DNA from: a virus
Taxonomy: Duplodnaviria > Heunggongvirae > Uroviricota > Caudoviricetes
Length of the DNA: 40,023 nt
Virus record (IMG/VR): IMGVR_UViG_2874945390_000002
Span: 1 to 40,023 of that record
Strand: one strand, 5' to 3'
Position numbers: made by a program. Positions within the stretch are counted from its first letter, which is position 1. Each line of letters starts with the position of its first letter. This document shows positions 15,001 to 18,000 of this stretch, piece by piece.

Positions 15001-18000
15001 GGAGAGATTTTTGAGCAATCGACTTGACTTTGCGTAAAATTGTCTTGTACTATTTTAAGTATGGGTTTTAGCGCCCAGATAAAAATTAACACGGAACCCG
15101 CCTTATAGCGGGTTTTTTGATTATGGTAAATTTTCCATAAATTTCTTAAATAGTAATTTGTCTTTATTGCTTACAGATTTCTGAATGTTAAGTAATGCAC
15201 GTAAAGGTTTAAGGTTTTCTCTTGTTGCAAAAACCCTAGATTTTTCTAAGCGTTCCTGAACAAAGTTAAAGCGTTCTCTTAATCTTGAAACCTTTATTCC
15301 AAAAGACAACACCTCTCTTTCAGTCAATTCATCTGGGGTGCATTTGCTTAATTTTTCCAGAACCATTTTTATATCTCTTTCATAAAGAAGAGCAATGTCA
15401 TAATCATTCAGCAAGCATTCAGGGTATTGTATTACCCCAATAAGTTCATTTATTGTTTTGTTTTTGTTGTTAACTTTTGGAGCTGAGTCGCTTGTTTGCT
15501 TCTGGGACATAATCTCGTCCAGTTCTAGTTCCTCTGTATTTTTTAATCTTGAGCGGAAAACACGCCCATCACCAGAAGCAGCCATCTTTTTCAATGTTTG
15601 ATAAGCTGCACGCCCGATAATTTTGGGGTCTTTCATGTCAAGAATTCTATGGGCGACCTCATTTAGCGATGGGCTACTGGACTCGATTTGTACCTTGAGC
15701 TTGTAATAGCTAAGAATATCGGCTTTTGCTTCTTTTAGGGCAGTAAGTAAGCGATGGAAATCAGCCTTGCGGCAAAGTTCGATAGCTAAGTCGTTAAATT
15801 TTATACCAAATACATTAGTCCCACACACATGGCCGATATTTGTTTCAAGTCCTTCTTTCGTAACCACCAGAAATCCCTTTTTATGTCCTTTGCGGCAATT
15901 GGATTTTCCGCATGGTATTTCCTCTGGTAGGTCATCGTAGTAACCAAAAACGTCAGAGAGTTGCTGATCATTTAACTCTAATTTGGGATAGTAAGACTCT
16001 CTCGCCTGAATTTCTGCTCAGTCATTCACGCGAATAAAACTTTCGCCATTCTTGAGAAAAATCATACTCGTCCTTACTGTGGTTAGATTTAAAGCATATC
16101 CATTTGATATTTAATCACTATTCTTTTTGTGTTTCACCTAAAACCATTTTGTTTTCATGTTTAATGTGACTGATGTATCATCACTCCCCCAGCCATTTTA
16201 GCTAAATGATGAGAGCGAGTTATAATCGCCAGGTCGCTGGTTCAAGTCCAGCAAGGGCCACCAACCGTCACTAGCTCATCGGGATAGAGCATCAACCTTC
16301 TAAGTTGATGGTGCGGGGTTCGAGTCCTCGGTGGGGGGTGCCCCTATTAAGTTGTCAAGCATGTTATGACCCCTGCGGGGTATAAAAAGTCCCGTCGCGC
16401 ATCATGGCGAACAGAACGTCGCAGCGTCGTCTCGCCAGGGCGATAAGCGCCTGATTGTGTCGTTTTCCCTGACTCATTTTGCGGGTGTAGTAAGCCCTGG
16501 AGAGCGGATCCCTGAGCGCGGCGAAGGCCGACAGGAACAACGCCCGTTTGAGAGCTTTATTACCCCGTCGCGAGGGATGCTCACCGCGTATTGACGAGCC
16601 GGATCGCCGAGTTACCGGCGCAAGGCCAGCATAAGCAGCGAGATGTGCGGCAGAGGCGAAGGCGCGGCAGGCGACCTCGGTGAGGAGTCTGGCTGCGGTC
16701 CTGACACCGACTCCGGGCATACTGGTCAGGACCGGGTAAAGAGGGTGAGCAAGAACTCGCTGTTCTACCTCAAGCGCCACCTCGTCTCTTTGCTTACGCA
16801 GCGTGATGAGCTGGAGTGCCAGACGTGGCAGTACTACGGCAGCGGCATTCGTGCCGGGAACGACGACGGTTTGTTCGGCCAGTGCCTGAGCTATGTCTGC
16901 TGCAAGGCGTTTACCCAGACGAGGCGCAAGTTTGCAGAGCTGGGCTGCCAGCTTCTTCTCACCCAGCGAAGCGAGTTTTTCTGGTGAGGGATATCGCTGG
17001 AGAAGATCGAGTACCGCCGGGTGCTCAAGTCTCGGACCGAGAACGCGCTCCAGTGCCGGATGTATCTGGGTCAGAAGGCCGCGGATACGGTTGCTGGCCT
17101 GCGTTGTCTGTGCGGCAAGATCATCATCGAAGCCGCAGAGCATGGAGAGTTCGGCGATTTGCTCGTCAGCCAGTTTCAGCGTGCGTAGCGCGTGAGGCAG
17201 GGTACGGGCAGCTTCGGCAATGATGGCAGCGTCACGAGCATCAGTTTTAGCTTCACCGGCGTGTAAGTCGGCTATGCGGCGCATGGCCAGTCCAGGGAGG
17301 TATCCGACAAGGACTCCTTCTGAGCGGGCAACGGCGACAGGTAACGCACCGATGGTAGCTGGCTGATCAACAACCAGCAGTATCTGACCATGTTGTTTCA
17401 GGTCAGATATTAGCGACCTGAGTTTGTTTTCGTCGTTGGGTAATGCTTTATCGAACAGGCGTTTACCTGAACGATTAATGGCAACAGCGTGATGCGTATC
17501 TTTACCGACATCAACGCCGATAAAGACCTGGACGGATTCGTAATCGCTGGATTCGGTCATTCTGTCTCCCTTGTATATGGGTTAACCAGATAACCACGGG
17601 GAGCAGGTACCGGCATCCACGTTACAGACGGTCCCGGCAAAAGTGCCTGACCTGACCCCTATTAGCGGTTACCAGCGCCCCACCAGACCCGGTGACATCA
17701 CCCCCCGGATCATGGACGACTGGGGGCAGTAATCATGCCGGGTCTGGCTGGCTAACACCCCATTATAAGGGGTACGAATAAAGTAACGCGGGCTCCCGTT
17801 TTTTATTCGGACAGGAACAGATATGGCAAAGAAAGACGATAACCTGAAACGTCTGAGAGAACTGGCAGCATCGCTGGGACGTGAGCCGGATATCTCGGGA
17901 AGCGCAGCAGATATTGCGCAGCGTGTGGCTGAGCTGGAGGAGGAACTTGCCAATATGGATGACACTGACATCCGGGATAAGTCTGCCCACCCGGAAAATG

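Follow-up and report, generated by a model that had tools for sequence, protein, structure and literature searches.

Shiga toxin (Stx) phages carry a small group of tRNA genes downstream of the late antiterminator gene Q. In the Stx2 phage Stx2a_F349 (AP012530.1), which provided our ileZ reference, the genes annotated between Q and stx2 are ileZ, argN and argO. By analogy, late transcripts that depend on Q would run across the tRNA genes of intact clusters of this kind and so provide tRNAs for the rare codons AUA, CGN and AGA/AGG; the three tRNAs near stx2a have been discussed in the same terms of codon supply (PMC7946995), and beyond that general statement the literature on ileZ, argN and argO yielded nothing relevant. 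In Shigella, genome decay driven by insertion sequences (ISs) is documented genome-wide, and ISEc20 is listed among the ISs of Shigella sonnei 53G (PMC7373316). Here we describe a tRNA locus in a stretch of 40,023 nucleotides (nt) of viral DNA (IMG/VR record IMGVR_UViG_2874945390_000002, positions 1 to 40,023; the window), in which two tRNA-like sequences stand downstream of Q and next to an IS110-family element. The locus is very probably the wreck of a rare-codon tRNA cluster, consisting of an inherited pseudogene of the phage ileZ gene (psi-ileZ) and a tRNA-Arg gene truncated by ISEc20, and as such a case of ordinary IS-driven prophage decay.

Results

The tRNA-Arg(UCU) gene is cut by ISEc20

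The Rfam tRNA model (RF00005) matches the window at 16192-16260 and 16265-16338, and no other Rfam match of any kind was found in it. The second, at 46.6 bits, passes the detector threshold and is also called by ARAGORN at default settings as tRNA-Arg(tct). The predicted molecule combines a G3·G70 mismatch with a U4·G69 wobble and ends without CCA. An earlier note on this DNA, made from the sequence alone, had identified a tRNA-Arg with anticodon UCU, one acceptor mismatch and no CCA. That note had further taken the gene to be decayed, with the IS110 element beginning within about 25 bp of it, and on these points comparison with intact alleles gives a different picture.

A 32-nt anticodon-arm pattern retrieved two IMG/VR contigs with intact alleles, L004 and L005 (compared loci are numbered L001 onwards). 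In both, the tRNA-Arg(tct) gene is 77 nt long (L004 14104-14180, L005 930-1006), has a perfect acceptor stem (CCGUCAC/GUGACGG) and is followed directly by tRNA-Gly(tcc). The window matches these alleles at 69/69 positions, up to canonical position 68. From there the intact alleles continue with ACGGACCA, the rest of the Arg gene together with tRNA-Gly being ACGGACCATGCGGGCATCG; where they have ACGG-A-CCA, the window past 16333 reads GGGGGTGCCCCTATTAAG. Positions 69-76 (ACGG-A-CCA) are missing, a loss of eight bases. In BLAST alignments, homology to L004 stops exactly at 16333, and that to the ISEc20-bearing contigs L014 and L015 starts at 16333. The same tRNA-IS junction is present in an independent draft assembly, GCA_003572455.1 (7 G versus 6 G), and is therefore not an assembly artefact.

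The tRNA-Arg gene is accordingly an allele free of other defects that an ISEc20 junction interrupts between tRNA positions 68 and 69. In the hybrid, the terminal G-run of the IS takes the place of the lost 3' strand: G69 forms a wobble with U4, G70 opposes G3, G71 and G72 pair with C2 and C1, and G73 stands at the discriminator position. The junction inside the gene and the mimicry by the G-run account for the G3·G70 mismatch as well as for the lack of CCA. What is reported at 16265-16338 is not a complete gene of single origin with an acceptor 3' strand, discriminator and encoded CCA of its own.

The alternative that had been envisaged, a complete Arg gene decayed by drift (an acceptor point mutation and loss of CCA) with the IS110 element some 25 bp downstream, possibly inside a third tRNA gene, draws on the fact that ARAGORN and Rfam both report a full-length 74-nt tRNA with a single mismatch, and on the transposase open reading frame (ORF), which ends only at 16364. 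The earlier reader appears to have taken this stop codon for the end of the IS, whereas the identity switches inside the gene, at 16333/16334. Up to 16333 there are zero differences from the intact alleles, which is unlike drift, and from 16334 onwards the sequence is 99.7-99.9% identical to ISEc20, whose end, GGGGG plus TGCCCCTATTAAG, recurs in more than 20 copies. Nor does a tRNA remnant lie past the IS: ARAGORN, Rfam and flank comparison all failed to find a third gene there, and the far flank belongs to a lambda-like gpFI/tail module. The alignments to intact alleles and to ISEc20 copies refute decay by drift, and we attach practically no credence to it.

The truncated gene is 84% identical to argN(UCG) over 69 nt and 67% identical to argO(UCU). 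By alignment, it sits at the argN position, not that of argO, and belongs to a UCU allele class that is intact elsewhere. Relative to argN it has compensatory changes in the anticodon stem (G30-C40 to A30-U40 and U27·G43 to U27-A43) as well as the anticodon UCU. A deletion chimera of argN and argO was considered and rejected, the gene being 84% argN-like throughout and 100% identical to a free-standing intact allele. Intact members of the UCU class are found downstream of Q in other E. coli prophages, among them those of EC416 (Ile-Arg) and strain 504838 (Ile-Arg-Thr-Gly); in the complete-genome collection, ∼ 48 records carry the UCU allele at ≥ 90% identity versus ∼ 1900 with the argN type. 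The argN position is occupied by two allele classes, UCG and UCU (window 16291-16307 versus L001 6395-6411 and L003 3099-3115), and the UCU class occurs in the cluster types Ile-Arg, Ile-Arg-Thr-Gly and psi-Ile-Arg-Gly. For the lineage of the window, the ancestral cluster was psi-ileZ - Arg(UCU) - Gly(UCC). An uncharacterised ORF ∼ 280 bp past tRNA-Gly in L005 looks like a lambdoid holin gene; L001 and L002 have an annotated holin there.

psi-ileZ is an inherited pseudogene

With Rfam, the first tRNA-like sequence scores 31.3 bits, just over the gathering score of 29 (the E-value is 0.0086 when the whole window is searched and 1.1e-4 for a 501-nt region), versus 72.5 bits for intact ileZ. ARAGORN, which the earlier note had proposed as a check, calls the Arg gene by default; it misses the first sequence at default and at -ps and calls it at -ps90 only, as tRNA-Ile(tat) at 16191-16263. 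In this call, the 4-bp anticodon stem takes bases that are also needed by the D stem.

Alignment to ileZ agrees with the earlier description, in which T-arm, acceptor 3' strand and CCA are flawless, the 5' half is unable to pair with them and the anticodon region carries deletions. Seven substitutions, together with a 4-nt deletion, fall within the first 35 alignment columns. The acceptor 5' strand has C for G2, A for C4 and U for C5; in the D-arm C13, G15 and G18 are each changed to A, the last of these changes turning G18G19 into GA; and in the anticodon region CGAC is lost from the stem and C34 is changed to T, so that CAT becomes TAT. By comparison, the last 42 columns (T-arm, acceptor 3' strand and CCA) show 0-1 difference. 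The concentration of damage in the 5' half is significant by Fisher's test (p between 8e-4 and 8e-6, for a split point picked post hoc). A canonical cloverleaf does not form: pairs 2:71 and 4:69 are broken and the anticodon stem borrows a D-stem strand. The fold z-score is -1.0, compared with -4.0 for ileZ, and the minimum-energy fold has no acceptor stem. The assignment to a degenerate ileZ-type pseudo-tRNA is borne out by these scores and by the phage vB_EcoS-611R1 record (ON470586.1), whose depositors annotated the same allele as "tRNA-Pseudo-TAT".

The allele, one T-loop base apart, is present in the E. coli FDAARGOS_1283 prophage (L001), in vB_EcoS-611R1 (L002) and in L004, L005 and L033-L035, five IMG/VR contigs. 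Together with 40 nt of upstream sequence it occurs in 22/5426 complete E. coli genomes, in P27-like prophages; SCU-106, the one such genome listed, has no tRNA annotation at this place from the Prokaryotic Genome Annotation Pipeline (PGAP). The pattern had 0 matches among the GTDB species representatives, a set that holds one genome per species and says little here. Among the loci with psi-ileZ, the 120 nt of non-coding DNA upstream are as conserved as the pseudogene, and the identity of the copies therefore reflects recent common ancestry and not selection. These loci fall into two cluster types that diverge right after the pseudogene, with the T-loop A/G variant tracking the downstream type. 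We infer that the asymmetry between the 5' and 3' halves was left by phage tRNA clusters recombining with one another inside the conserved 3' half. Decay in situ in the Shigella locus was rejected, since the same allele is carried by intact-looking prophages and by an isolated phage; psi-ileZ was inherited with the P27-like early module (helicase, primase, helix-turn-helix (HTH) protein and Q).

Some of the same observations could be taken to mean that psi-ileZ is maintained as a non-canonical tRNA-like RNA, for instance as a lysidine-independent reader of AUA through its UAU anticodon, as a processing handle for the downstream tRNAs or as a decoy for tRNA-targeting defences. Rfam scores it higher than the gathering threshold, at least 8 loci belonging to two cluster types carry it with identical sequence, the damage is concentrated in the 5' half while the 3' 42 nt are preserved, and UAU would still read AUA. 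Against this, the upstream non-coding DNA is just as conserved and there are no compensatory changes. After the 4-nt deletion the D stem and the anticodon stem cannot both form, G18G19 is lost, two acceptor pairs are broken, and the fold z-score falls well short of that of ileZ; the asymmetry is explained more simply by recombination between tRNA clusters. We regard a maintained psi-ileZ as very unlikely.

The ISEc20 element and its right flank

From the junction in tRNA-Arg, the window is 99.7-99.9% identical over ∼ 1460 bp to RefSeq copies of 'IS110-like element ISEc20' (window 16331/16333 to 17792/17795). The transposase scores 239.1 bits against the NCBIfam model for the IS110 family RNA-guided transposase (NF033542; cut-off 140), which places it in that family, and Pfam DEDD_Tnp_IS110 and Transposase_20 are on record for it. 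IS110-family elements use a DEDD recombinase guided by a bridge RNA, which derives from the non-coding left end and specifies target and donor. In the left end of this copy, no Rfam family was found at gathering thresholds.

Every ISEc20 copy that we extracted has a G-run directly before TGCCCCTATTAAG (TGCCCC). At the tRNA junction the end of the element is GGGGGTGCC, with the tRNA flank CCTCGGTG; at the far end it reads ...AAGTAACG (17788), then CGGGCTCCCGTTTTTTATTCGG..., the gpFI flank being CGGGCTCC. Some 18 distinct ISEc20 sites (L009-L021, L036-L045) all lie in G-runs, with 3-8 G on one side and 2-7 on the other, and no flank consensus beyond the G-run was found among them. The target looks very short or of low complexity for a bridge-RNA-guided element of the IS110 family. 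At several sites (L011, L012, L013) ISEc20 lies in hairpin loops or palindromes.

On its right side the IS is fused to a lambda-like head-tail/tail module, of which gpFI is the first gene. L008 has an empty site, and the capsid-gene terminator found there can be aligned, in its 3' stem and T-run, to the sequence GCTCCCGTTTTT. Missing between tRNA-Arg and gpFI are tRNA-Gly and the lysis, terminase, portal, protease, decoration and capsid genes. Five IMG/VR contigs (L014, L022, L023, L024 and L025) share the ISEc20-gpFI junction, with one extra G, and have a different left flank. On the left side of L014 and L023, the region downstream of Q is a different one and includes an intact Ile-Arg(UCU)-Thr-Gly cluster, which in L014, where the left junction is readable, lies ∼ 670 bp from the IS. 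The left flank of L014 is a known ISEc20 site; in L015 and L017 the right flank at this site differs and begins with ATGTATCAGATGG, a putative holin start. The left arm of the window is 93-96% identical to L004 and L001 and its right arm 98% identical to L014 and L022-L024, whereas the left arm of L014 has no similarity to that of the window.

Simple insertion does not describe this arrangement: the flanks come from different phage modules and the right junction has 0-1 G (0 in the window), compared with at least 2 at other sites. As a separate observation, the sharing of the ISEc20-gpFI junction (window 17783-17822; L014 3090-3139) points to repeated IS-IS recombination that deleted the genes from lysis to capsid in prophages of this family.

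Origin of the junction

A sequence of four steps accounts for the locus. psi-ileZ is an inherited allele travelling with the P27-like helicase/primase/Q module. The second gene was once a functional tRNA-Arg(UCU) at the argN position, followed by tRNA-Gly(UCC) and lysis genes. An ISEc20-associated rearrangement would then have fused the IS end to tRNA position 68, deleting positions 69-76 and, with them, tRNA-Gly and all sequence as far as the DNA just before gpFI; the junction is there to be read, and the route to it is our reconstruction. Lastly, the GGGGG of the IS pairs by chance with C1, C2 and U4, and ARAGORN and Infernal for that reason still report a 74-nt tRNA-Arg. The rearrangement may have proceeded by (a) insertion of the IS into the tRNA gene, then homologous recombination with an ISEc20 copy already present upstream of gpFI, or (b) a deletion that extended to the left from this ISEc20 copy. 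From the absence of a G-run in the tRNA, together with 0 G on the gpFI side, we conclude that the gpFI-side junction is the older one and the tRNA-side junction secondary.

Several points weigh against this account. Intact tRNA alleles have no G-run of ≥ 3 at the junction, whereas all of the 17 or more other ISEc20 sites lie in G-runs, and neither side of the element looks like a textbook insertion (no G-run in the tRNA, 0-1 G on the right). The left junction and the reciprocal junction (ISEc20 end plus CGGACCA) had 0 matches each in IMG/VR and the JGI metagenomes. Left-junction matches were likewise absent from the GTDB species representatives (0) and from complete E. coli genomes, among which coverage reached 84% at best; these searches thus brought up no genome in which ISEc20 lies in this tRNA with a matching right flank. 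Finally, that the hybrid does not function is something we infer, and its 46.6 bits exceed the 43.0 bits of argN in Stx2a_F349, a viable Stx phage in which that gene is presumably functional. E. coli can in principle mature CCA-less precursors by means of RNase BN/Z and the CCA-adding enzyme.

The last point is the core of a rival explanation, in which the IS-tRNA hybrid still works: RNase BN/Z would cut after G73, the CCA-adding enzyme would complete the 3' end, and arginyl-tRNA synthetase (ArgRS) would charge the product. We consider this maturation route very improbable. In its favour, the CCA-less tRNAs of phage T4 are matured in this way in E. coli, and the anticodon arm, D-arm and T-arm of the hybrid are untouched. 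It is equally doubtful that the G-run of the IS restores enough acceptor stem (C1-G72, C2-G71 and U4·G69), with a G3·G70 mismatch in the middle of that stem. Rfam scores for intact Arg alleles are 56.0-59.4 bits, compared with 46.6 for the hybrid, and the free energy of the cloverleaf is -24.5 kcal/mol for the intact tRNA and -20.6 kcal/mol for the hybrid, a weakening by 3.9 kcal/mol. The minimum-energy fold of the hybrid (-28.4 kcal/mol) is not a cloverleaf; it uses the G-run and is 7.8 kcal/mol better. Charging through anticodon bases C35/U36, the probable A20 and a purine at position 73 likewise seems to us an improbable outcome, the discriminator having changed from A to G. The length of the G-run varies between assemblies (6 or 7 G), and no late genes are left to benefit, and hence there is no selection for function.

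We therefore return to the wrecked cluster as our preferred reading, in which neither tRNA gene is likely to give a working tRNA. The prophage has no lysis, terminase, portal or capsid genes, and the tRNAs are thus no longer usable by it. A joint proposal, in which psi-ileZ is maintained as a tRNA-like RNA of P27-like phages and/or the IS-completed Arg hybrid is matured by the CCA-less pathway, strikes us as highly implausible.

Prophage context

Window positions 8169-20984 correspond to 12.8 kb of CP026836.1 (L026) with 0 mismatches, and an identical Q antiterminator protein is encoded there. CP026836.1 / GCF_002950135.1 is the 5,106,737-bp genome of a Shigella boydii ATCC strain (PMC12817139, PMC12679885). 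The region is a defective, IS-riddled lambdoid prophage in Shigella boydii. Features are listed in Table 1.

Table 1. Features of the window around the tRNA locus, in order of position.
Feature	Position	Strand	Remarks
Integrase	75-1361		Prophage start
P27-like early module: helicase, primase, HTH protein, Q	10.7-15.0 kb
Late antiterminator Q gene	14169..14984	+	Pfam PF03589 Antiterm on record for identical protein
pR'-like promoter TTGACT-18-TACTAT	15024-15053	+	Consensus match alone
tR'-like terminator	15093-15116	+	9-bp stem, directly after Q
ORF between Q and tRNAs, N-terminally truncated	15121..15867	-	248 amino acids here versus 314 in relatives
psi-ileZ, pseudogene of phage tRNA-Ile2(CAU) gene	16192..16263	+	Rfam, ARAGORN -ps90, alignments
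tRNA-Arg(UCU) gene, 5' 69 nt (canonical positions 1-68)	16265..16333	+	69/69 identity to intact alleles
ISEc20 (IS110 family)	16334..17788	-	Boundaries uncertain by ∼ 2 nt because of the G-run
ISEc20 terminal G-run	16334..16338	+	Read by tRNA finders as acceptor 69-72 and discriminator
ISEc20 transposase ORF	16364-17560	-	398 amino acids
ISEc20 non-coding left end	17561-17788		228 nt
Right IS flank	17789..17822	+	3' half of terminator hairpin and T-run preceding gpFI in lambda-like phages
gpFI DNA-packaging protein gene	17823..18224	+	Pfam PF14000 Packaging_FI for identical protein; RefSeq homologue 'gpFI'

The P27-like early module is 96% identical to that of the FDAARGOS_1283 prophage, and the Q homologues of L001 and L002 are named 'antitermination protein' in RefSeq. 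An ORF resembling HNH/NUMOD4 homing endonucleases (10073-10693, + strand; 200 amino acids in the L026 gene calls) overlaps the start of the helicase gene. Downstream of Q, the late transcript expected to run across the tRNAs would putatively start in the segment 15024..15116, the layout of 15011-15116 resembling lambda pR'/tR'; the assignment follows lambdoid gene order, the number of such sites being not above shuffle expectation. A promoter scan upstream of psi-ileZ gave one weak site, at 16152-16181, also not above shuffle expectation. The reverse-strand ORF between Q and the tRNAs shares 94% BLASTP identity with residues 67-314 of its L001 homologue; it has no NCBIfam family match and no Pfam hit on record.

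Besides ISEc20, the prophage contains two IS3-family copies and two of IS4, the latter interrupting tail genes. The IS3-family copies are direct repeats near the integrase end (3345-4610 and 5655-6920, 2310 bp apart), each with an orfB-type transposase of 272 amino acids, and their sequences agree at 100% over at least 300 nt. The IS4-family copies (22584-24045 and 30431-31892) are inverted, 1462 nt long, 99% complementary and 6.4 kb apart in the tail genes. A TipJ-like ORF (27910-30450) stops at profile position 839/1163, where the second IS4 copy starts; contig L024 lacks the first IS4 copy and is otherwise collinear with the window. An IS-riddled prophage of this kind fits the IS-driven genome decay of Shigella (PMC7373316).

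L001 (6611-6810) and L003 (4647-4858) both have the small RNA STnc100 (RF02076, 129-159 bits) in their late region, on the downstream side of the tRNA cluster. In L001 it follows the last tRNA at ∼ 75 bp, in L003 it comes after the stx2 genes, and it is absent from the window.

Discussion

All components of the locus are already known and publicly annotated: the ileZ/argN/argO cluster, the pseudo-TAT allele, the Arg(UCU) alleles and ISEc20. Only the particular junction of tRNA and ISEc20 has no earlier description, and as an outcome of IS activity in Shigella it is unremarkable. Its biological importance is small, as one more case of IS-driven prophage decay in that genus (PMC7373316). The case is of value for annotation: the tRNA-Arg(UCU) that a tRNA finder lists here as full-length ends in five bases of insertion sequence, and the acceptor mismatch and missing CCA mark a junction here, not mutational drift. 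Of mild comparative interest are the almost exclusive occurrence of ISEc20 in G-runs and the UCG and UCU classes at the argN position with their compensatory stem changes.

The ileZ-argN-argO cluster of Stx phages (Stx2a_F349; 933W type) is the closest described counterpart. Both clusters stand downstream of Q and have homologues of ileZ and argN with the same Arg T-arm. In the window, however, ileZ is a pseudogene, the argN position has UCU instead of UCG, and argO is absent; the gene content is not Ile(CAU), Arg(UCG), Arg(UCU) but psi-Ile(UAU) plus a truncated Arg(UCU), a homologous variant type. The proposal that this is the Stx-phage cluster in decayed form consequently holds for its place downstream of Q and its homology, and fails for its gene content, the third gene of the lineage being Gly(UCC). 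Downstream there are no stx or lysis genes but ISEc20 and gpFI, and the P27-like Q module is separated from the tRNAs by an ORF on the reverse strand.

Phage vB_EcoS-611R1 and the FDAARGOS_1283 prophage are alike in psi-ileZ (one T-loop base apart), in the region upstream of it and in the helicase-primase-HTH-Q module (96%). They differ after the pseudogene, where they have TCACAT, argN(UCG), argO(UCU) and a holin gene, whereas the lineage of the window (with L004 and L005) has Arg(UCU) and Gly(UCC), cut by ISEc20 in the window. The ISEc20 copy shares with those elsewhere the same ends, the 398-residue transposase and the G-run with which the element terminates on the 3' side of its transposase gene. 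It differs from them in a tRNA flank without a pre-existing G-run, in having 0 G on the other side and in flanks from different phage modules. With flanks of such separate origin and these exceptions to the G-run rule, ISEc20 here marks a rearrangement and not a simple insertion.

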